Of a stretch of 64,000 nt of DNA, positions 30,983-40,382 are shown in pieces. Numbering within the stretch: the first letter of the stretch is position 1; each line of letters opens with the position of its first letter. A program made the translations under genes and the position numbers. The notes beneath the pieces are model-generated. The model saw nothing but the letters and a program-made list of their open reading frames with translations. It did not search any database and was not told the DNA's origin. Source of the DNA: Deltaproteobacteria bacterium (GTDB taxonomy: Bacteria; Myxococcota; Kuafuiibacteriia; Kuafuiibacteriales; Kuafuiibacteriaceae); NCBI GenBank assembly GCA_040218735.1, contig JAVJQW010000062.1:192001-256000 (forward strand). The letters run 5' to 3'.

Positions 30983-31053
30983 TCTGGCCGGAGCCTAGAT
31001 TTTTTCGACGCCCGCTGTCGATCCGAGGGCGCCCCGTTCGTCCCCTGTGCATC

Positions 31054-31737
31054 ATGCCCAACATGACGTTCACGGGGTTCGACCCCGCCGCGGTGGCGCT
31101 GCTGCCGCAGCTGCCCCAGCTCGACGCCTCGGACTACGAAGGTGTCAAAGACCAGCTCGCGAGCGGCTTGCGCGCGCCCGGCGCCGCGCTGATGGAGGCC
31201 ATCGCCCACCGGCTCGGTCCGAAGCTCACCGTCGGCCGCGCCTCGGTGTCGCCGCTGCACCGCGACCTGCGGTTCGCCAAGGCCGGGACGCCTCGGTACA
31301 AGGACCACCTGCTCCTGACCACCTGGGAGGGGAAGGACCGCAAGACGTCGCCGATGCTCTGGCTGCGGATCGACGCCGAGTCGGTCGGCTTCGCGAGCGG
31401 CGTAATGTTCACCCCGACGACGCGCGAGCGTTGGCGCAACGCGGTCGGCGCCGACTCCGGCACCACACTCGCGAAGCACCTCGCGGCGCTCGAGAAGAAA
31501 CACCGGCGGCACGGCTTCGACATCGCGGGCGACCAGCTCGCGCGCGTTCCGAAGCCGTGGCCCGCGGATCACGAACGCGCCGACCTGCTCCGCCGCACCG
31601 GGTTCCAGGTGCGGTTCATGGAGCCCCACCCCAAACGCATCGACACCCCCGCGTTCGCGGCGTGGTGCACCCAACGTCTCGGCGAGCTGTGGCCGGTTCA
31701 CCGCTGGCTCGTCGACCATGTCGCGGAGGCTGAATGA
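31054..31737 (+). CDS. DUF2461 family protein
   Basis: FTGF N-terminus, HRDLRFAK..TPRYK, and LARVPKPWPADHERADLLR. Confidence 0.85.
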   Translation: MPNMTFTGFDPAAVALLPQLPQLDASDYEGVKDQLASGLRAPGAALMEAIAHRLGPKLTVGRASVSPLHRDLRFAKAGTPRYKDHLLLTTWEGKDRKTSPMLWLRIDAESVGFASGVMFTPTTRERWRNAVGADSGTTLAKHLAALEKKHRRHGFDIAGDQLARVPKPWPADHERADLLRRTGFQVRFMEPHPKRIDTPAFAAWCTQRLGELWPVHRWLVDHVAEAE

Positions 31738-32051
31738 ACAAGGAAGAAGCGCTGTTCTGGTCGCTCGCCGACGAGCTCGCGGGCGAGGACCCGCGGGTCG
31801 TGGAGGGCACGATCATGGGCGGGCGGTGCCTGCGCGTCGGCAAGGAGTTCCTCGCCCTCGTCGACTTCAAGGGCTCGGGCCTCGTCGTGAAGCTCCCGCG
31901 TGCGCGCGTGGAGGCGCTCATCGAAGCCGGCCACGGCGAGGCGTTCGCGCCGGCCGGGCGGGTGTTCAAGGAGTGGGTCGCGATCCCGAAGCCCGACCGG
32001 CGTCGCTGGCGTTCCCTCCTCCGTGAGGGGATCGCGTTCGTAGGGAAGTAG
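31734..32051 (+). CDS. small TfoX/YjbR-like protein
   Basis: GTIMGGRCLRVGKEF, LVVKLP..RV..LI, and GRVFKEWV pattern. ATGA overlap with the upstream gene. Confidence 0.6.
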   Translation: MNKEEALFWSLADELAGEDPRVVEGTIMGGRCLRVGKEFLALVDFKGSGLVVKLPRARVEALIEAGHGEAFAPAGRVFKEWVAIPKPDRRRWRSLLREGIAFVGK

Positions 32052-32829
32052 CCGCCACCGCGCGGACGCTCCGGCCGACGTCGGTCTCCATGAGCTCATC
32101 CGAGAGCGTACGCAGGGTGATGCTCGTGCGCCGCGCCGTGATGTCGCCGGGGAGGATGCCGTGCAGCCAGCGGTACCGAGCCGCGCCGAACAGCACGAGC
32201 AGGGAACGCGCGGGGAGCGGGACGCGGATGCGTCGTTTGGCGCGCTCGAGATCGTCGATCGATGTCCCCGGTACGAACGTGAGCGCCGCGTCGGACTCGA
32301 GCGAAAGATCGAGGATGACCTCGCCGTAGGCGAAGGTGTCGTCGGCGTGCAGGTCCAGGTTCGACTGGCGTTCGGGTTCGTAGCGGAGCACGAACGCGTC
32401 CGTGGTCTCGAAACCAGCTGCGACGGCGAAGGACTCGCGCGCGAGGGATTCGATCCCTCGAATATAATCCGGCAATCCTTCGAAACCCGCGAGGCGCAGC
32501 CGGCGGTGCTTGAAGCTCACCTTCGGACCGAAGTGCTGCTTCCGCTTGCCGCTCTGCGCGGGGCGCCACGGCGTTTGCTCGATGCGCGCGAGGAGCGCGG
32601 CGGCCGACGCTTCGTCTACGGCGTCACGAAGGACACAAACCCCCGTGAAGTCCGGCGCCGTCGGCACGCGCTGCGATTCGAGGTCGAAGTCGTGCACCTC
32701 GCAGGCAGGCAACTCACGCGGCGGGAACATCCCGGTTGCTCGACGCAGCGCCGGGTCGCGACAAACGGCGCACCAGCGAATGCCGGTGCAGACACAGGTC
32801 TTGTCGGGGACCACGGCGTCGGCGAGCAC
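31966..32829 (-). CDS. 2OG-Fe(II) dioxygenase, AlkB family, ALKBH4-like
   Basis: HxD (LHADD), His (WLHGI), RxSxTxR (RRTSITLR), an N-terminal CxCxGIRxCxxC cluster, and QSGKRKQHFGPKVSFK. Confidence 0.88.
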   Translation of the reverse strand: MLADAVVPDKTCVCTGIRWCAVCRDPALRRATGMFPPRELPACEVHDFDLESQRVPTAPDFTGVCVLRDAVDEASAAALLARIEQTPWRPAQSGKRKQHFGPKVSFKHRRLRLAGFEGLPDYIRGIESLARESFAVAAGFETTDAFVLRYEPERQSNLDLHADDTFAYGEVILDLSLESDAALTFVPGTSIDDLERAKRRIRVPLPARSLLVLFGAARYRWLHGILPGDITARRTSITLRTLSDELMETDVGRSVRAVAATSLRTRSPHGGGNASDAGRASGSRPTP

Positions 32830-32855
32830 ACCTCACCGACGCCGTCGGTGGCAAC

Positions 32856-34850
32856 CTACGCGTCCTCGACGATGACGAAGAACGCGAGGTCCAGGACGCA
32901 GGTCGGCATCTCCTGCTTCACGGCGATCATCTCCCCGCGGACGAGATCGCGCGTGAGCTGGATGATCGTGCCGGAGCCGTTGCCGATCTCCGTCGCCGTC
33001 TTGTCGAAGATGCGCACGGTGGCGCCGGGGATGAGGCCCTCCGTGACGAGCACCGTGTCGTCGCCGTGGTGCGGCGTCGCGATCTTCACCACGACGTTCT
33101 GCGGACTGCACGCGACCGGCGGCGGCAGGTCCAGCGGCTCGGACGTCTCTTCACAGAGCTCCTGCGTCCCGACCAGCAGATCCGTCGCGACGAGCGGTGC
33201 GCCGAGGTCGTAGTCGACCACCCGGCGGAACGGCCACGAGGCGTCGTCGAAGTACGTCGTCATCGCGCCCGGAGCGACGTTCTGCAGCTTGATGTGTGCG
33301 CCCTGCACGATGGACTCGATCGTGACGAGCTCCTGCCCGATGATCGGCGGCGCCATCTGCATCGTCGGCAACGTGTCCGGCGCGTCGACCGCGGCTTCGC
33401 GGTTCGACCAATCGCTCGTGTCGGCGCAGAGCGTCTGCTGCGCCTCGAAGCGATCGCCCACGACAAACGGTCCGTCGGCGTACAGCCGCATCGCCGTGAG
33501 GCGGTAGCCGCTCTCCTTGGACTGCAGGTGGGTGCCGCCCGCGGCGCGCGTCTTTCGCACGGTGACCGTCGCGCCCGGGACGTGCTGAACGCCGACGGAC
33601 TTCGCGCACTCGTACACGGGCGTCGCGACGATCTCGGGCGCCGGGAGGCCCATCGGGTAGTCGTCGGTGTGGTCGCGCACGAACGTCAGCACGGTGATCG
33701 AAGAGACGCCACCGACCGTCTGCTTCACGCCGATCACCTGCCCCGTCACGAGCGGAGCCGCCAACTCGAACACGTGTTGGCCCGGGGAGCGCGTGACGGC
33801 CGCGGCGGTGGGCACGCCGCCGATCGACAGCTCGAGCAGAGCGCCCAAGCGCGCGCTGCGAACGGTCACGAAACGCGAACAAGCGTACGGCGGCTCGACG
33901 AGCGGAGGCAGCACCGGGACGTCGTCGGGCGCCTGGAAGGGGCCGACCCATCCGCCGTCACCCGACGTGTTGCACGCGGCCTGGAGCCACCCCTTGTGGT
34001 CCGCGTAGTCGGCGATGTTGCCCGCGGGCGGCATGGTCGGCGTGGCGGCGCCGTCGCCGACCGCGTTGTCGAGCACGATGCTGCAGTAACCCGGGTACTT
34101 GTCGGAGATCAGCGGGAAGCGGCCGGCGTTCGCGGGGGTGTGGCAGCTGTCGCAGCGCTGGCCGGTGGCCGGTCCGAGCTGGTCGAGCGGCGCGGGGTTC
34201 GGGACCCAGTCGGGGTGGTCGGGGATGATCGGCGTCGGCCACACCTGCGGCATGAACGATCCGACCACACCCTCCGCGGCGATGAACTGCGGGTCGAAGG
34301 GGTGAACGACGAACGGGTTCTCGCCGGCGTGGCAGTCGGAGCAGATCCCCTCTGGGTTGCCGACCAGGTCGAACCCGCCGATGAGTTTGTCGATGCCAAT
34401 GGCGCCGATCGACGGGAAGTCGCTGTCCTTCGCGTCCTCGGGTCGCGCGAAGAAACACACGTTGCCGGTCTCACGTCCCATGCAGATCATCCCGAGGATG
34501 TCGGGCTCATGGCCGATGCCGCGACGCGGGAGCGCCAGGCAGAGCCCCTCGGGGTTCGTAACGTCGTCGTAGGCGCCGAAGTCGTGAATCGACCACAGGT
34601 CGGCGTCCCTCGTCGGCTCGACGAAGGTCTCGGCGAGGTCGCCGTAGAGCGTCCAGCCCCGGTCGAGATCGAGCACGGTCTCGGGGACCGGGACGCCCGC
34701 GTTGCGGCACTCTTGGACGTAAGCGGCGCCGGTGTTCATCGTCGCGATCTTGGCGGCCGCGATCGTGGTGCGCTGTTCGGGGGGCTCGGCGGTACAAGCG
34801 GCGAGCGCGAGGAGGAGGGTCGAGAAGCGGAGTTGTTTCGCGGTGAGCAT
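32856..34850 (-). CDS. di-heme c-type cytochrome lipoprotein with C-terminal beta-sandwich repeats
   Basis: Lipobox LAAC, CSDCH and CDSCH, repeated GA.V....L..G..I...Q units, and a GGGGAG RBS. Confidence 0.7.
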   Translation of the reverse strand: MLTAKQLRFSTLLLALAACTAEPPEQRTTIAAAKIATMNTGAAYVQECRNAGVPVPETVLDLDRGWTLYGDLAETFVEPTRDADLWSIHDFGAYDDVTNPEGLCLALPRRGIGHEPDILGMICMGRETGNVCFFARPEDAKDSDFPSIGAIGIDKLIGGFDLVGNPEGICSDCHAGENPFVVHPFDPQFIAAEGVVGSFMPQVWPTPIIPDHPDWVPNPAPLDQLGPATGQRCDSCHTPANAGRFPLISDKYPGYCSIVLDNAVGDGAATPTMPPAGNIADYADHKGWLQAACNTSGDGGWVGPFQAPDDVPVLPPLVEPPYACSRFVTVRSARLGALLELSIGGVPTAAAVTRSPGQHVFELAAPLVTGQVIGVKQTVGGVSSITVLTFVRDHTDDYPMGLPAPEIVATPVYECAKSVGVQHVPGATVTVRKTRAAGGTHLQSKESGYRLTAMRLYADGPFVVGDRFEAQQTLCADTSDWSNREAAVDAPDTLPTMQMAPPIIGQELVTIESIVQGAHIKLQNVAPGAMTTYFDDASWPFRRVVDYDLGAPLVATDLLVGTQELCEETSEPLDLPPPVACSPQNVVVKIATPHHGDDTVLVTEGLIPGATVRIFDKTATEIGNGSGTIIQLTRDLVRGEMIAVKQEMPTCVLDLAFFVIVEDA

Positions 34851-34937
34851 TTCGTCTCCCCACGTGCGCCGGTGCGCCGCGATTTATCCGACGAACTGAC
34901 CGCGGACGTCGCGGCCTTTCGTGGGAGGATGCCAACG

Positions 34938-35588
34938 ATGGAGCTTCGGCAGGTCGAGTACGCGACGTTCGTCGAGTGGCCGAGCGTCGCGGTCGCCGAG
35001 CTCGACGCGGACGTCCGGGCGAAGCTCGATCGATTCGGCGAGCTTCAGCGCAGCGGCGCGGACTACGTCGGCAACTCCGTCGACTTCACGCGGCGCTACG
35101 TCCTCGACGACGGGCGAACGCTCTACTTCCCGGAGCTGCTCCGGCCCATGACCGCAGCGACGGCCGTGCCGCTGGCGCTGGGGATCGCCGGCCTGTGCGC
35201 GCTGATCGCCGGGCTCTCGATCGACACCAAGGACTTCGCGTACGCGCCCTACCTCGCGGCGGGCGGCGTGGCGGCGATGGTCGCCGCGTTCTTCGCGTTC
35301 GGTCGGGCCGGCGCCGACGACGCCGCGCGACGCGCGACCGTGGAGGACATCGGGCTGTACCTCTTCGACGATGTCATCGTGCTTCGCCACCCCGAGCGCG
35401 TGAGTGTCGTCCCCCGCGCGCGGGTGACGCGCGCCGTATGCGCGAAGGAACGCAACGACACCCGCAACGCCCTCGACCCGTGCCTCGAAGTGCTCGACGG
35501 CGAACGACGCGTGCACGTGCGCATCGGCGGCACGCAGGAGCTCGTCGACGTGATCAACGCGTGGCTGGGTGTCGACGGCCGCCCGTAG
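34938..35588 (+). CDS. hypothetical membrane protein (2 TM)
   Basis: GGGAGG RBS, ATG at 34938, and two hydrophobic helices. It is the 3' part of the long track ORF 32736..35588. Confidence 0.6.
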   Translation: MELRQVEYATFVEWPSVAVAELDADVRAKLDRFGELQRSGADYVGNSVDFTRRYVLDDGRTLYFPELLRPMTAATAVPLALGIAGLCALIAGLSIDTKDFAYAPYLAAGGVAAMVAAFFAFGRAGADDAARRATVEDIGLYLFDDVIVLRHPERVSVVPRARVTRAVCAKERNDTRNALDPCLEVLDGERRVHVRIGGTQELVDVINAWLGVDGRP

Positions 35589-36377
35589 CTACGGAACGGA
35601 GCGAATGACGAGCGTGTAGAAGCCGATGTCGCTGGTCTGCGCGGTGACGAGGAGCGTCGTCTGGCCGGGGGGCACGTAGAGGGCGCAGCTCGGGACGTTC
35701 GAGCAGTACACGCCGGACGACGTGCCGTTCGAGACCGTGACACCCCAAGTGCCGCTGCCGCCGCCGGTGATCGACGCGCAGAACGGATCGCCGGGACTCA
35801 CGCTGATGAAGTAGGTGTCGGGCGTCCCGACCGACGCGCTATCGGAGATCGTCTGCGTCACGAGGCCGGGCTCGTTGCAGGTCACCGGCGGTGGGCCGCC
35901 GGCGTCGCGGGGGCCGCCATCGCGGGGGCCGCCGTCTCTTGAGCCACCGTCGCGGGGGCCACCGTCTCTCGGGCCGCCGTCGCGGGGACCGGCATCCCGC
36001 GCGCTCCCACCATCGACCGCGACGCCACCGTCGCGCGCATCGCCGCCGTCGAGCGGGTCGCCGCCATCGCGCCCGCCGCCGTCGGCCGGGTCACCGCCAT
36101 CGCGAACGCCACCGTCGAGCGCGTCGCCACCATCGCGCCCGCCGCCATCGTGCGCGTCGCCGCCATCGATGGCACCGCCGTCACGTGAAGCGCCGCCGTC
36201 GATCTCGCCGCCATCGCGGGCGACCTCCGCTCCGCCGTCGCGCAGGCCACCGTCGCGCGCGCCCGTGTCGTCGCCCCCCGGCACCGCGTCGCCGGAGCAC
36301 GAGGAAGCGCCGAGCCCGAGTAGGACCGAGAAGCACAGAAACGAAGTGCAAAGCCGCGGGCTCCGGGCGTCGACCAC
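35589..36377 (-). CDS. exported protein/lipoprotein with long RDGG repeat linker and small Cys-containing beta domain
   Basis: Signal sequence ending GASSC, about 20 DGG/DAG units, and a C-terminal domain. Confidence 0.7.
   Translation of the reverse strand: MVDARSPRLCTSFLCFSVLLGLGASSCSGDAVPGGDDTGARDGGLRDGGAEVARDGGEIDGGASRDGGAIDGGDAHDGGGRDGGDALDGGVRDGGDPADGGGRDGGDPLDGGDARDGGVAVDGGSARDAGPRDGGPRDGGPRDGGSRDGGPRDGGPRDAGGPPPVTCNEPGLVTQTISDSASVGTPDTYFISVSPGDPFCASITGGGSGTWGVTVSNGTSSGVYCSNVPSCALYVPPGQTTLLVTAQTSDIGFYTLVIRSVP
35900..36265 (-). repeat. coding (R)DGG tandem repeat
   Basis: RDGG, PRDGG and DGGD units, seen at DNA level as recurring CCGCCGTCGCG/CCGCCATCGCG. Confidence 0.8.
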
Positions 36378-36460: not shown

Positions 36461-38629
36461 TCACGGATCGATCGGGGTGTTCCAAGGCGGCGGGAGCCCC
36501 GGGATCGGGAGCGGGAACGGCGGCAGCGGATCGAACACCGGCCGCGCCCCGGTGTCGTAGGCACCCGCATCGCACCGCTCGAGCCGCGACGCGCGCCGCG
36601 TGAAGCCGCGCTGGTCGGGGCCCGGGCAACGGAACGCCGACGTCGCGACCATGTTGTCCACGGCCGGGCTCGTCGCGGCGATCGCATGCGTCATCGTCGC
36701 GCCCGCGTTCCACGCGAGCGGTCCGAGCTCCGCGTCGAGGGGCGCCGACGCGCTCCCGACGTCGTCCCGTGGGGTGCCTACGTAGCTGATGTCGTCGATG
36801 TCGCAGTCGCTCGTCACCACGCCGATGACGTTGCCGCCGTACGAGTCGATGCGTGCCGTCGCCGCGCAGTCCGGCGAGTAGTCGATGTCGAGAGGCTGCC
36901 GGTGATCGTCGTTGTCAGCGACGATCGAGTTGGCGATCGCCATGTTCCCGACGTTGTGGATCCCGCCGCCGGTCTGCGCCTCGTTGCCGAACGATGCGGC
37001 GGCCGTGTTGGCTTCGTTGTTCGCGACGGTGCTGTAGCTCATCCAAAGGCCCCCGGGATTCGTGCTCCCGGCGATGTTCAAGATTCCGCCCCCGCGCGTG
37101 ATCGCCCGGTTGCCGCTGATCGTGCTGTTCACGATCGTCGCGTCGCCCCCGATGTTCGCGAGGCCCGCGCCGCGCGTCGCTTGGTTGCCGTGGATCGTAC
37201 AGCGATCGAGCAGGAGCGTCCCGCCGTTCATGATGCCGCCGCCGCTCGCGGTGATGCCGCCGCCGGTCTGGGTTTGCGTGATGCGGCTGTGACTCACCGT
37301 CGACCGAACCAGCGAGAGGGTGCCGTGGTTGCGGATCGCCGCCCCGAAGGTGCGTGCTTCGTGGTCGGTGACGACGGTGTCCGTGATGTCCACGACGACG
37401 CCCGGGTCGATGTAGATCCCGCCTGCGGTTCCGTAGTCCACGTTCTGTCGGCCGCCGCGCACCGTGACGCGGTCGATGCGCACCGTCTGGCCGTCGCCGA
37501 GCCCGGGCACCGAGGTGACACATCGAATCCGCGGGATGCCGGCGGTGACGCCGTCGAGGAACACGCCGAGGAAGGCGCCGGTGTCGGCGTCGTAGCGGAG
37601 GATTCGATTGTTGTGCCAGCTCAACACGAGGAGCTCGTCGTTCGGCGTGATGAACATGCCGGCGGGGCCGTCGAGGCCGCCGCTGCCCGCCGACACGAAC
37701 GCGCCGAGGGGCGCGCCTTGGTAGTCGTAGGCGAGGATCTCGTTCGAGTAGTAGCTCGCCACGAGGAGACCTTGGTGCCCGCGGATGACGTCGGTCGGCC
37801 CCGAGAGCCCGCCGCCCGCGGCCGCGACGCGCTCGTACTGGCCGTCCTCGTCGAACCCCAACACGGCGTCCGTTTCGAAGCTCGCGACGGCGAAGCCGCT
37901 GTAGGCGAGGAGCGCCGACGCCTCCGAAAGCCCGCCGCCCTGGCTGCTCCCGAGGAGCGCGCCCGTCTCGAAGTCGTACCGGTAGAGGCCGCCGAGGGAG
38001 CCGCCCTGGGCGACGTAGAGGATCTCGTTCTGGCCGTCGAACCCGGAGCTCGCGTCCACGAACGATCCGCTGTTCGACGCGACGATGGTGCCGAGCAAGG
38101 CGCCGGTTCGGGCGTCGTAGCGGTGCACGCCGCTCGCGACACCGGACACGAGCAGCTCGTTGCGGGTCGGAGTCCGGGTGACGTTCGTCGCTTGCGAGAC
38201 GCCGTGTGACGCGGGAACGAGCTGGCCGCGCAGGTTTCCGAAGAGGTCGTAGCGGTCGACCTCGTCGGTGCCGCACACGAGCACTTCGTCGTAGTCGATG
38301 CTGAGCACGCGCGAGTCCGTCCCGGCTTCGATGAACGTGACGCCGGACCCCGACCCGACGATGTCGACGTCGGAGCGAACGGGGAGCGCGCCGAGGCCGA
38401 GCCGGTAGGTGCCGCGCCCGAGGACGATGCGGTCGTGGCCGGGGCGCGCGTCGGCTTCCTGCACGGCGGCGCGTAGGGCGCAGCGGCCAAAGCTGGTGAG
38501 GCAGACGCCGTCGCCGGGGTCGGCGTCGGAGGCGTCGGTGAAGGTGTCGACGGTGAAGGTCGCGGCCTGGCTCGACGCGGCAAAGCCGACGACGAGGGAG
38601 GCGGCGGTCGAAGCGATCAATCTCTGCAT
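36461..38629 (-). CDS. secreted CSLREA-type protein with inserted beta-propeller and choice-of-anchor-Q beta-helix
   Basis: AATFTVDTFTD..GDGVC...CALRAAVQEA, NHL-like repeats (GLDGPAG..RYDADTG), GGGIxN repeats, LGPLAWNAG.T.TH, and DQRG..R...CDAGAY. Confidence 0.82.
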   Translation of the reverse strand: MQRLIASTAASLVVGFAASSQAATFTVDTFTDASDADPGDGVCLTSFGRCALRAAVQEADARPGHDRIVLGRGTYRLGLGALPVRSDVDIVGSGSGVTFIEAGTDSRVLSIDYDEVLVCGTDEVDRYDLFGNLRGQLVPASHGVSQATNVTRTPTRNELLVSGVASGVHRYDARTGALLGTIVASNSGSFVDASSGFDGQNEILYVAQGGSLGGLYRYDFETGALLGSSQGGGLSEASALLAYSGFAVASFETDAVLGFDEDGQYERVAAAGGGLSGPTDVIRGHQGLLVASYYSNEILAYDYQGAPLGAFVSAGSGGLDGPAGMFITPNDELLVLSWHNNRILRYDADTGAFLGVFLDGVTAGIPRIRCVTSVPGLGDGQTVRIDRVTVRGGRQNVDYGTAGGIYIDPGVVVDITDTVVTDHEARTFGAAIRNHGTLSLVRSTVSHSRITQTQTGGGITASGGGIMNGGTLLLDRCTIHGNQATRGAGLANIGGDATIVNSTISGNRAITRGGGILNIAGSTNPGGLWMSYSTVANNEANTAAASFGNEAQTGGGIHNVGNMAIANSIVADNDDHRQPLDIDYSPDCAATARIDSYGGNVIGVVTSDCDIDDISYVGTPRDDVGSASAPLDAELGPLAWNAGATMTHAIAATSPAVDNMVATSAFRCPGPDQRGFTRRASRLERCDAGAYDTGARPVFDPLPPFPLPIPGLPPPWNTPIDP

Positions 38630-38641
38630 GGGGCCCGACTT

Positions 38642-38657
38642 CGCAAACGCGATGCCA
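38642..38657 (-). promoter_or_regulatory. putative sigma-54 promoter (-24/-12)
   Basis: Minus strand TGGCATCGCGTTTGCG has GG-N10-GC spacing and lies directly upstream of the CSLREA gene ATG. Confidence 0.55.
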
Positions 38658-38795
38658 CGCCGACGGGGCTCATCGCCCGTGCTTGGCGGCGTGCGAGGGC
38701 GGCGAATCGCTCGGTCGCGCACGTGCGCGCACCGGGGGGAGCGCAAGAATTGGAGCGTTGTCGGCGCCGTCGTGCTACGCGGAGCGACGACGTCC

Positions 38796-40382
38796 ATGCC
38801 CGTCCAGACCCCCGAAGCGCTCCTGCCGCTGTACGAAGAAGGCCTCCTCGACGAGGTCATCCGTCCGCTGATGAGCGGTAAGGAGGCGTCGGTGTTCCTC
38901 GTGCGGTCGCGCGGGATGGAGTGTGTCGCGAAGGTCTACAAGGACGCGCAGCACCGGACGTTCCGTCAGCGCGCCGCGTACGCGGAGGGCCGCCAGGTGC
39001 GGCGCTCGCGGCAAAGACGCGCGCTGCAGAAGGGGAGCGCGTACGGCAAGTCGCTGCTCGAGGCGACGTGGCAGAACGCGGAGGTCGACGCCCTGCTGCG
39101 GCTGCACGAGGCCGGCGTGCGGGTGCCGACGCCGTACCATCACGCCGAGAACGTGCTGTTGATGGAGCTGGTGACGGACGCCAACGGTGATCCGGCGCCG
39201 CGCCTGGACGACGTGGACCTCGACGTCGAGACGGCGACGCTGCTGCACGAGATCCTGATCCGCGACATCGTGGCGATGCTCTGCGCGGGCCTCGTGCACG
39301 GGGACCTGTCGCAGTACAACATCCTCGTCGCGGCCGACGGCCCGGTGATCATCGACGTCCCGCAGGCGACGGACGCCGCGACGAACCGCAACAGCGAAGC
39401 GATCTTCTTGCGCGACGTGAAGAACGTGACGCGCTTCCTCGGCCGCGCCGCACCCGCGCTGCTGAAGACGCAGTACGGCCCGGAGATCTGGGACCTGTAC
39501 GCGCGCGCGGAGCTGCGACCCGACAGCGAGCTGACGGGGCGCTTCCGCGCGAAGAAGAAGCGCGTCGACGCCGCGGACGTGATCGCGGAGCTGCGGGACG
39601 TGGAGGCGGAGCAGCGACCGCCGAGCGCGTACCAGCTGAAGAAGCAGCGCCAGGCCGAGGCGCGGGCGGCCGAGGCGCGCGCGGCGCCGGGTCGCGGAGA
39701 GCGTGGCCGCGACGACCGCGAGGAACGCGGCGGCGGACGAGAACGCCAGGAGCGAGACGGCGGACGCTCGGGCAACAGACGCGACGGCGGACGTGAACGC
39801 CAGGAGCGCGACGGCGGACGTGCACGCCAGGAGCGCGGCGGCGGACGTGGACGCCAGGAGCGCGGCGGCAGACGTGAACGACAAGAGCGCGGCGGCGGAC
39901 GTGAACGCCAGGAGCGCGGCGGCGGACGCAAGCGCCAGGAGCGCGGCGGCGGACGTGAACGACAAGAGCGCGGCGGCGGGCCCGCGCGCGATCAACGCGA
40001 CGGCGGGCGAGCGCGCGCTCAACGCGACGGCGGGCCCACGCGGGATCAACGCGACGGCGGGCCCACGCATGATCAACGCGGCGGCGAGCGAGCGCGCGAT
40101 CGACGCGACGGCCGGCGAGCGCGTGATCAACGCGACGGCGGGCGCGCACGCGATCAACGCGACGGCGGGCGCCCGGGCAACAACCCCGACGGCGGGCGCC
40201 GTGGCGACGAACGCGACGGCGGGCGTCATGCCGTGAAGGCGCCTCGCGCGGCGTCCTCGGGCGCTCCGAGCGCCGACGACGCGCGGGACGCATCGACGCC
40301 GGCCGCGAAGAAGCGCCGACGGCGCCGCTCACGCCGCGGGCGCGCAGCGGGCGCCGCGAAACCCCGAGAATCGTCGCCCTGA
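38796..40382 (+). CDS. RIO1-family atypical kinase (PA4780-like) with Arg/Gly-rich repeat tail
   Basis: LMSGKEASVF, VAKVYK, WQNAEV, VHGDLSQYNIL and VIIDVPQA motifs. Confidence 0.9.
   Translation: MPVQTPEALLPLYEEGLLDEVIRPLMSGKEASVFLVRSRGMECVAKVYKDAQHRTFRQRAAYAEGRQVRRSRQRRALQKGSAYGKSLLEATWQNAEVDALLRLHEAGVRVPTPYHHAENVLLMELVTDANGDPAPRLDDVDLDVETATLLHEILIRDIVAMLCAGLVHGDLSQYNILVAADGPVIIDVPQATDAATNRNSEAIFLRDVKNVTRFLGRAAPALLKTQYGPEIWDLYARAELRPDSELTGRFRAKKKRVDAADVIAELRDVEAEQRPPSAYQLKKQRQAEARAAEARAAPGRGERGRDDREERGGGRERQERDGGRSGNRRDGGRERQERDGGRARQERGGGRGRQERGGRRERQERGGGRERQERGGGRKRQERGGGRERQERGGGPARDQRDGGRARAQRDGGPTRDQRDGGPTHDQRGGERARDRRDGRRARDQRDGGRARDQRDGGRPGNNPDGGRRGDERDGGRHAVKAPRAASSGAPSADDARDASTPAAKKRRRRRSRRGRAAGAAKPRESSP
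39705..40225 (+). repeat. coding 27-bp tandem repeats (RERQERGGG then RARDQRDGG)
   Basis: Two blocks of degenerate 9-aa units in frame with the kinase. Confidence 0.85.

Follow-up and report, generated by a model that had tools for sequence, protein, structure and literature searches.

Sequence, profile, fold and tree comparisons support a bacterial member of the ALKBH4/NMAD-1 dioxygenase clade in a Deltaproteobacteria genome

The window analysed here is a 64,000-nucleotide stretch of contig JAVJQW010000062.1 (positions 192,001 to 256,000; assembly GCA_040218735.1) from a Deltaproteobacteria bacterium. Its minus strand carries an intron-free open reading frame (ORF) of 287 amino acids (aa), open from a GTG codon (Table 1). 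An earlier note, made from the sequence alone, had taken the product for a bacterial protein resembling eukaryotic ALKBH4 rather than Escherichia coli AlkB. Sequence, profile, fold and tree all concurred with that assignment, and they support an intact, genuine bacterial gene whose product falls in the ALKBH4/NMAD-1 clade among AlkB-type dioxygenases. The five strings on which the note had drawn were all present in the translation: CVCTGIRWCAVC at residues 12-23, WRPAQSGKRKQHFGPKVSFKHRRL at 88-111, YEPERQSNLDLHADD at 150-164, VPLPARSLLVLFGAARYRWLHGI at 203-225 and RRTSITLR at 233-240. An in-frame TGA at 32835-32833, two codons upstream of the start, limits the starts that retain the Cys cluster to GTG 32829 and the GTG at codon 6.

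Pfam recovered only the generic AlkB-type domain PF13532 (E = 1.7e-8), and neither the NCBIfam models, AlkB ones included, nor PADLOC matched the protein. Using phmmer against PDB sequences, we observed that the best matches were four Caenorhabditis elegans NMAD-1 constructs (E = 1.5e-25 to 3e-23), with a weak second stretch aligning the N-terminal CxC...CxxC to NMAD-1; ALKBH8 (1.2e-5), ALKBH3 (0.011) and ALKBH5 (0.015) came next. A profile built from 25 bacterial relatives matched NMAD-1 in a single stretch over profile positions 7-264 (E = 1.6e-52), followed by ALKBH8 (5.9e-15), ALKBH5 (4e-9), ALKBH7 (4e-7) and ALKBH3, ALKBH2 and ALKBH6 (~1e-6). The E-value gap between NMAD-1 and the next family was 20 orders of magnitude for the single sequence and 37 orders for the profile. 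E. coli AlkB was absent among the profile matches at E <= 0.01, which speaks against the broad bacterial AlkB clade that the earlier note had allowed for. Lemur ALKBH4 (P0366) shared 33% identity (E = 2e-42) over residues 10-246 of the window protein, a stretch running from the Cys cluster through the whole of the catalytic domain. Its strings CGCKGIRTCLIC, WKLSQSGRRKQDYGPKVNFRKQKL, YCPERGSAIDSHLDD and IPLPRRSLLVLTGAARHQWKHAI were near-identical to the human motifs given in the note.

The predicted fold gave the same ranking. An AlphaFold2 (AF2) model from a 115-sequence alignment had a predicted local distance difference test score (pLDDT) of 92.4 and a predicted template modelling (TM) score of 0.88, with disorder confined to residues 269-287. 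Foldseek ranked NMAD-1 first (E = 5e-22, TM 0.70/0.79), with ALKBH3, ALKBH5 and ALKBH8 at ~1e-12 and E. coli AlkB at rank 47 (1.5e-9). The large ESM Atlas clusters nearest to the protein were all eukaryotic ALKBH4 (feature scores 0.94-0.96, TM 0.79-0.80), and ALKBH8 clusters followed (TM 0.55-0.60). The tree separated the ALKBH4 ingroup from an ALKBH8-like outgroup (Shimodaira-Hasegawa-like approximate likelihood ratio test, SH-aLRT, 99); ALKBH1-3, ALKBH5-7 and FTO were compared through the PDB searches only. An E. coli-type AlkB repair dioxygenase was rejected on the presence of a Cys knuckle, the absence of AlkB from the profile matches, its Foldseek rank of 47 and the lack of an NCBIfam AlkB match.

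We then mapped the protein onto NMAD-1A (PDB 8HB2/8HBB/8HAZ), the nematode ALKBH4 orthologue and its best sequence, profile and fold match. Passages of PMC10815869 lay NMAD-1A out as an N-terminal extension (NTE), a lid with Flip1 and Flip2 (residues 107-143), a jelly-roll core and a C-terminal domain (CTD, residues 264-291), essential for activity, that stabilises Flip2. The window protein has the same order of knuckle, NTE, Flip1/Flip2, double-stranded beta-helix (DSBH) and CTD. The Cys knuckle aligned with the NMAD-1 N-terminus, and pLDDT was 95-96 across residues 11-30. CxCxGxRxCxxC was encoded in frame in 25/25 related GTDB loci and in a second bacterial copy, L002; of the 179 tree rows, 125 matched the strict motif, and among the rest were many truncated gene calls. 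Gene callers often pick a later Met (MxPP...) and lose the knuckle, as in P0003, P0004, P0098, P0122 and loci L004-L028. The knuckle may bind Zn. An N-terminal Zn-binding domain defines the AlkBH4 clade in a passage of PMC4738411, and the NMAD-1A zinc finger (residues 8-20) is itself termed hypothetical in one of PMC10815869.

The lid was strongly conserved. Its ALKBH4-type stretch QSGKRKQHFGPKVSFKHRRLR spans residues 92-112, and Q92, S93, G94, K97, Q98 and G101 were invariant or nearly so in 115 family members. In Flip1, NMAD-1A R117/R118 correspond to K95/R96; in Flip2, F128-K129-H130 correspond to F106-K107-H108 and K131/K132 to R109/R110. All seven NMAD-1A lid residues tested by mutation were kept, with K/R swaps only, and mutating them reduced demethylation of N6-methyladenine (6mA) according to a passage of PMC10815869. 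In the core, the predicted Fe ligands H161, D163 and H223 map to NMAD-1A H184, D186 and H239, and the predicted 2-oxoglutarate (2OG) ligands Y150, R234 and R240 to Y173, R250 and R256. These six were invariant in 115 aligned members, which bears out the intact Fe/2OG ligands claimed before. The seventh NMAD-1A position, the 2OG ligand S197, is D174 here and is not conserved, so that ligands were kept at 6/7 positions.

Toward the C-terminus, helices 244-247 and 250-259 were modelled at pLDDT ~98, G252 was near-invariant, and the alignment of the 25-relative profile to 8hb2 extended to chain residue 277. The Flip2 partners P102, L111 and F116 are hydrophobic and match NMAD-1A P124, V133 and F138. 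By likeness to NMAD-1A, the C-terminal helices are predicted to pack on Flip2. Residues 269-287 had pLDDT <50, and the tail was common only to the two closest relatives, P0003 and P0004. The bacterial clade also has motif states of its own: QSGKxKQH[FY]G and DDxFxYG, where eukaryotes have SQSGRRKQD[FY]G and DDxWxWG. K95 and H99 are the clade-specific states in the window protein's lid, and three residues before Y150 the clade has V in place of the eukaryotic N.

Table 1. Features of the ALKBH4-type gene and its immediate neighbours, in window positions
Feature	Position	Strand	Basis
ALKBH4/NMAD-1-type Fe(II)/2-oxoglutarate dioxygenase gene	31966..32829	-	ORF, PF13532, NMAD-1 match, AF2 model
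Start region: purine-rich GGTGAGG, one base, then GTG	32827..32837	-	Read from sequence
N-terminal Cys4 knuckle C12-x-C14-x5-C20-x2-C23, putative Zn site	32761..32796	-	Motif and NMAD-1 alignment
Nucleotide-recognition lid, residues 92-120 (Flip1 QSGKRKQHFGPKV, Flip2 SFKHRRLRLAGFEGLP)	32470..32556	-	NMAD-1A alignment
DSBH core, residues 144-242	32104..32400	-	Fe/2OG ligand conservation
C-terminal helices, residues 243-263, NMAD-1A CTD equivalent	32041..32103	-	AF2 model and profile
Disordered Gly/Ser/Pro/Arg-rich tail, residues 264-287, and stop codon	31966..32040	-	AF2 pLDDT
Upstream 664-aa gene	32856-34850	-	
Convergent 105-aa ORF	31734-32051	+	

The window protein differs from NMAD-1A in its low identity (only ~22% in structural alignment), in the motif states K-x-K-Q-H and F-x-Y-G, in its 24-residue disordered tail and in a bacterial host without nucleosomes to bind. 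Mammalian ALKBH4 (lemur P0366, mouse P0341) has CxCxGIRxCxxC and the QSG[KR][KR]KQ..GPKV lid in common with it, and differs by a ~25-residue insertion ahead of the second His strand. Neither actin K84me1 nor DNA 6mA, the substrates reported for mammalian ALKBH4, has an evident matching setting in the bacterium. ALKBH8-type AlkB domains, bacterial L003 and L047-L049 included, are the next-closest family; they share the DSBH core, but lack the Cys knuckle and have another lid. E. coli AlkB and three AlkB paralogues of the window genome (L029-L031) share the PF13532 superfamily and its chemistry; they are very distant and have neither knuckle nor CTD nor a lid of the ALKBH4 kind.

We asked whether the gene resides in the bacterium. 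The genome spans 11.6 Mb in 70 contigs (96.5% complete, 4.65% estimated contamination) and has a single copy of the gene; an identical protein has been recorded on a 405,837-nt contig. In Logan run X3, an 8,436-nt contig spans 30500-32463 and a 7,414-nt contig spans 32434-34500, and in run X2 a 1,059-nt contig spans 31968-33026, covering the whole gene and its junction with the upstream gene. Run X1 contains the whole stretch and may be its source; X2 and X3 come from other studies, and this junction evidence consists of assembled contigs, not raw reads. GC was uniform over the window (66-72%), the gene has no introns, and bacterial contigs as long as 6.2 Mb carry 25 relatives. Third-position GC (GC3) of the gene was 0.80, with 0.91-0.93 in the immediate neighbours, and lay inside the spread of the window (0.85 +/- 0.06, 42 long ORFs). 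Because contigs of two other studies cross both gene borders and show the same neighbours on each side, eukaryotic contamination or a chimeric join, which the earlier note had kept in view and which the 70 contigs and estimated contamination might favour, is extremely improbable.

The co-directional 664-aa gene upstream carries a lipoprotein-like signal (..LLLALAAC) and two CxxCH motifs and had no Pfam or PADLOC match; 26 nt separate its stop from the start of the ALKBH4-type gene. The convergent 105-aa ORF (GC3 0.92), for which no Pfam family was found, overlaps the last 86 nt of the ALKBH4-type gene, at the disordered tail. Scanning 31000-35600, we observed no sigma-70-like promoter and no terminator-like site, and there was no RNA dataset among the 21 sequencing runs listed as holding the sequence. 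Farther out in the window lie a DUF2461 gene and a CN-hydrolase gene. Homologues of the two flanking genes were present in 2/19 (664-aa gene) and 1/19 other family genomes, too rarely for an 'empty site' to be demonstrable. The window also holds a 657-aa ORF with a RIO1 kinase domain at 38409-40382 (+) (E = 9.5e-41). The RIO1 kinase family is more typical of archaea and eukaryotes.

Related loci have other neighbours. When 27 loci were clustered, a DUF7065/DUF7064 gene lay directly upstream in 12, a WS/DGAT gene downstream within 6 kb in 16, and a BtrH_N/DUF4872 gene upstream in 6 (Pfam identities come from representatives of L012, L007 and L010 only). The placement of the gene between DUF7065/DUF7064 and WS/DGAT genes on one strand could be read as recruitment of the bacterial protein to a metabolic pathway, as a small-molecule or lipid oxygenase. 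We consider this very improbable: these neighbours are absent from the window, they vary by subclade, and the nucleic-acid-type basic lid and putative Zn knuckle are strictly conserved. The recurrent neighbours look like lineage synteny rather than a functional operon of all carriers.

To see how widely the protein occurs, we searched 5.8 billion proteins and obtained 217 matches among 8,000 scored candidates. The best 120 of the 217 were all above 208 bits at 42-56% identity, save three near-identical entries. Where names were given, they were 'alkB family protein 4' and 'DNA N6-methyl adenine demethylase' in IMG, and 'AlkB [Myxococcota bacterium]' and 'AlkB [bacterium]' in NCBI metagenome-assembled genomes (MAGs). 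At E <= 1e-3, an exhaustive search of representatives returned 990 proteins, of which 293 remained at a cut-off of 1e-10 and 54 at 1e-30. About 16 exceeded 190 bits, and below a gap the rest scored 90-165 bits. Cluster look-ups for 30 weaker representatives named sturgeon, lamprey and hemichordate ALKBH4, together with Colponema, Amoebophrya, Perkinsus, Diacronema, Macrostomum and a EukProt transcript; some were unnamed. A homologue search with the protist alignment A3 yielded 6 proteins only and no new labelled protists, so that the eukaryote labels rest on these look-ups and on named ALKBH4 entries.

When one genome from each of 185,579 species was scanned for the pattern QSG[KR]xKQH[FY]G, 25 loci came up; the match had to be exact, which makes this count an underestimate. 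Twenty of the 25 were labelled Myxococcota, Myxococcales or Deltaproteobacteria. The other five (L018, L019, L022, L023 and L025) were labelled 'uncultured Spirochaetaceae', yet they grouped inside the Myxococcota-labelled clade; these labels look doubtful, and L019 and L022 share the WS/DGAT neighbour. In genome samples screened with the profile at E <= 1e-30, carriers numbered 2/401 in the phylum of the window genome, 9/41 in a family holding several of the 25 loci (the richest family) and 10/401 in that family's phylum. The last phylum probably differs from the GTDB phylum of the window genome; the listed genomes of that sample are all new. Members of the bacterial clade shared 43-55% mutual identity. 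The clade looks old and is rare and patchy, with nearly all members in MAGs labelled Myxococcota or Deltaproteobacteria.

Three trees were built. FastTree was run on 179 rows: the query, 13 named ALKBH4, 28 translated loci and 137 representatives from the 150 listed, the other 13 falling outside 180-520 aa. It recovered a bacterial clade of 46 rows (support 97) within an enclosing clade of 55 rows (support 97) that added P0131, the P0132/P0135/P0246 group and a five-row group containing Amoebophrya. A quick IQ-TREE analysis (LG+C20 PMSF) of 78 hand-picked rows, with three same-genome AlkB paralogues and an ALKBH8-like protein as outgroup, gave the same topology (bacteria 23 rows, SH-aLRT 98; enclosing clade 94); here the outgroup did not form a single clade, and long branches were noted. 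The third tree was run in the same way on 61 rows with four bacterial ALKBH8-like proteins as outgroup, 20 rows having been dropped, the three long paralogues included. Outgroup and ingroup were each supported at 99, and the bacteria (16 rows, 97) joined the same protist groups in a clade of 25 rows (94). These trees support ALKBH4 membership and the monophyly of the main bacterial clade.

Topology tests were more permissive. In approximately unbiased (AU) tests, placing all eukaryotes in one clade cost 2.41 log-likelihood units in one run (p = 0.447) and 2.26 in another (p = 0.415), and doing so with the P0132 group forced in cost 2.26 (p = 0.415). A single clade of all bacteria, L002 included, was not rejected either (delta lnL 2.48, p = 0.42). 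Both origins that the earlier note had proposed therefore stand: the maximum-likelihood (ML) trees nest the bacteria among protists, and the AU values keep a bacterial sister lineage.

We hold one or more old eukaryote-to-bacterium transfers to be the more likely origin, with modest confidence. In all three trees the bacterial clade sits beside the Amoebophrya group and the P0132/P0135 group, whose metagenome relatives look intron-bearing, and few bacteria carry the gene (25 loci in 185,579 species; 2/401; 10/401). In the closest metagenome relatives of P0132/P0135, L056 and L057, the similarity (50-69% identity) is broken into 6-7 collinear segments that differ in frame. These split relatives occur on contigs of 42-47% GC (L056:720-2558, L057:3549-7565) and appear to be intron-bearing eukaryotic ALKBH4 genes. 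A further relative of the group, the ORF L053:4806-6368 (+), encodes a 520-aa ALKBH4-like protein on a 50-kb contig of 33% GC, adjoining genes for mitochondrial mS39 (pentatricopeptide repeat, PPR) and AnmK; it appears to come from a eukaryote that has few introns and a lengthened ALKBH4.

The converse, an old bacterial lineage that is sister to, or the source of, eukaryotic ALKBH4, is possible and seems to us less likely. Identity inside the bacterial clade (43-55%) reflects a diversity as great as that of distant eukaryotes (33-48%), GC3 is near the host background, and WS/DGAT synteny kept in 16 of the 27 loci examined argues for long residence in that lineage. The AU tests keep eukaryote monophyly (delta lnL 2.3-2.4, p 0.415-0.447), and the eukaryotic AlkB family overall is held to be bacterial-derived in passages of PMC4738411 and PMC8868631. 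Set against this are the nesting of the clade among protist groups in three ML trees (SH-aLRT 94, FastTree 97), carriers that are patchy even in the richest family (9/41), and the fact that we saw no bacterial intermediates without the knuckle or lid.

A second bacterial copy bears on the number of transfers. G003, from the family of the window genome, carries an ALKBH4-type gene of 37% identity (L002; L050:9039-10118 (-)) in which the Cys knuckle is followed by a ~100-residue low-complexity insert and the motif states are eukaryote-type (SQSGRKKQDFG, DDTWVWG). It lies on a 338-kb contig of 59% GC, with ClpX, a phosphoenolpyruvate (PEP)-synthase regulatory kinase and sulfite reductase as neighbours, and in the third tree it paired with Perkinsus (89). 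Two ALKBH4 types in 2/20 genomes of one family fit repeated acquisition better than vertical descent, but the AU test allows a single bacterial clade that includes L002 (p = 0.42).

From the conserved residues, we infer that the enzyme uses Fe and 2OG to remove N-methyl groups oxidatively from a macromolecule bound at the lid. Fe(II) held by H161, D163 and H223 would activate O2, and 2OG bound by Y150, R234 and R240 would be decarboxylated. The resulting ferryl would hydroxylate an N-methyl group of the macromolecule gripped by the basic lid, and the hydroxymethyl would be released as formaldehyde. As the substrate class we tentatively propose methylated adenine (6mA) in unpaired or single-stranded nucleic acid. 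NMAD-1A demethylates 6mA in bubble and bulge DNA in vitro according to PMC10815869, in the passages concerned. A methylated base in unpaired nucleic acid is favoured because the NMAD-1A lid residues are kept and the hosts have no eukaryote-type actin in the genomes searched and, as bacteria, no nucleosomes. In 5/5 carrier genomes tested, PF00022 scored only ~25-35 bits, the MreB level also found in E. coli and Bacillus subtilis, and eukaryote-type actin was absent.

This absence bears directly on whether the enzyme might instead remove methyl groups from lysines of a bacterial protein, in parallel with actin demethylation by ALKBH4/NMAD-1. Database names call ALKBH4 a lysine demethylase. Demethylation of actin K84me1 is reported for ALKBH4, and Li et al. 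2013 also counts for this reading. PMC10278977 is entitled 'NMAD-1 functions as a demethylase for actin', and the weak in-vitro 6mA activity of NMAD-1A given in a passage of PMC10815869 leaves room for another substrate. With no eukaryote-type actin in the five carriers tested, a strongly basic lid in which the residues that NMAD-1A needs on DNA are kept, and no candidate protein substrate or lysine methyltransferase linked to the gene, we regard protein demethylation as improbable.

Alkylation-damage repair, that is, removal of lesions such as 1-methyladenine or 3-methylcytosine from DNA or RNA as by E. coli AlkB and ALKBH2/3, in place of the erasing of a purposely set mark, is unlikely too, though slightly less so. 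The window genome already has three other PF13532 AlkB-family genes, one at 124 bits, and the rare, patchy distribution is unlike that of a core repair gene. Repair is the ancestral and commonest AlkB-family role in passages of PMC4738411 and PMC8868631, the catalytic core is identical in kind, and the fold also matches ALKBH3 and AlkB, more weakly. The lid, however, is ALKBH4-type and not AlkB-type, and the bacterial profile leaves E. coli AlkB outside its matches at E <= 0.01.

Overall, the best explanation, a bacterial gene of the ALKBH4/NMAD-1 clade with the mechanism and transfer origin proposed above, is in our judgement probably correct as a whole. Several observations weigh against it. 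The clade's own motif states, the V near Y150 and D174 may mean that specificity has shifted toward a different substrate. The substrate of eukaryotic ALKBH4 is itself disputed, with DNA 6mA and actin methyl-lysine both claimed in the literature. Zn binding is a prediction from the knuckle motif. No methyltransferase or other informative partner was linked to the gene, and at E <= 1e-8 no window ORF in the 20-45 kb interval matched a gene neighbouring the 25 related loci. MT-A70 was found only in the window genome among the five carriers tested. Eukaryote monophyly was not rejected (p-AU 0.415-0.447), and neither direction of transfer was supported. The MT-A70-family adenine methyltransferase of the window genome is encoded on another contig (C45:88608-89198, L044/L045), in a 301-aa frame with two adjacent Pfam stretches.

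These data describe the first analysed bacterial clade of a known kind of enzyme; what is new is the recognition and analysis of the clade, not the enzyme type. Automatic annotation already flags some of these genes (IMG 'alkB family protein 4'). AlkBH4 is listed among the clades radiating in eukaryotes in a passage of PMC4738411, Table 3 of PMC3265494 places ALKBH4 in Apicomplexa, Stramenopiles, Plantae and Metazoa and not in Bacteria, and a passage of PMC8868631 derives it by duplication within eukaryotes. In the literature searched by title, abstract and passage, no bacterial ALKBH4 was described; the supplements of PMC3265494 and PMC4738411 might hold bacterial sequences.

The clade offers a simple bacterial model for an enzyme family whose true substrate is disputed, in hosts with no eukaryote-type actin in the genomes searched and no nucleosomes. 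The small, intron-free protein, which we would call readily expressed, could help to settle what the ALKBH4 lid recognises. The clade also exemplifies how a gene is shared across eukaryotes and Myxococcota-like bacteria by exchange, with a more eukaryote-like second copy in a related genome, and is a candidate for reversible adenine methylation in bacteria. That Myxococcota-type ALKBH4 is a working bacterial eraser of 6mA on unpaired DNA (or RNA) is a reading that we put forward as rather doubtful; in its boldest form, the ALKBH4 architecture would have arisen in this bacterial lineage and not in a eukaryote. If the eraser reading is true, these organisms could actively remove adenine methylation, a modification regarded as irreversible in prokaryotes.

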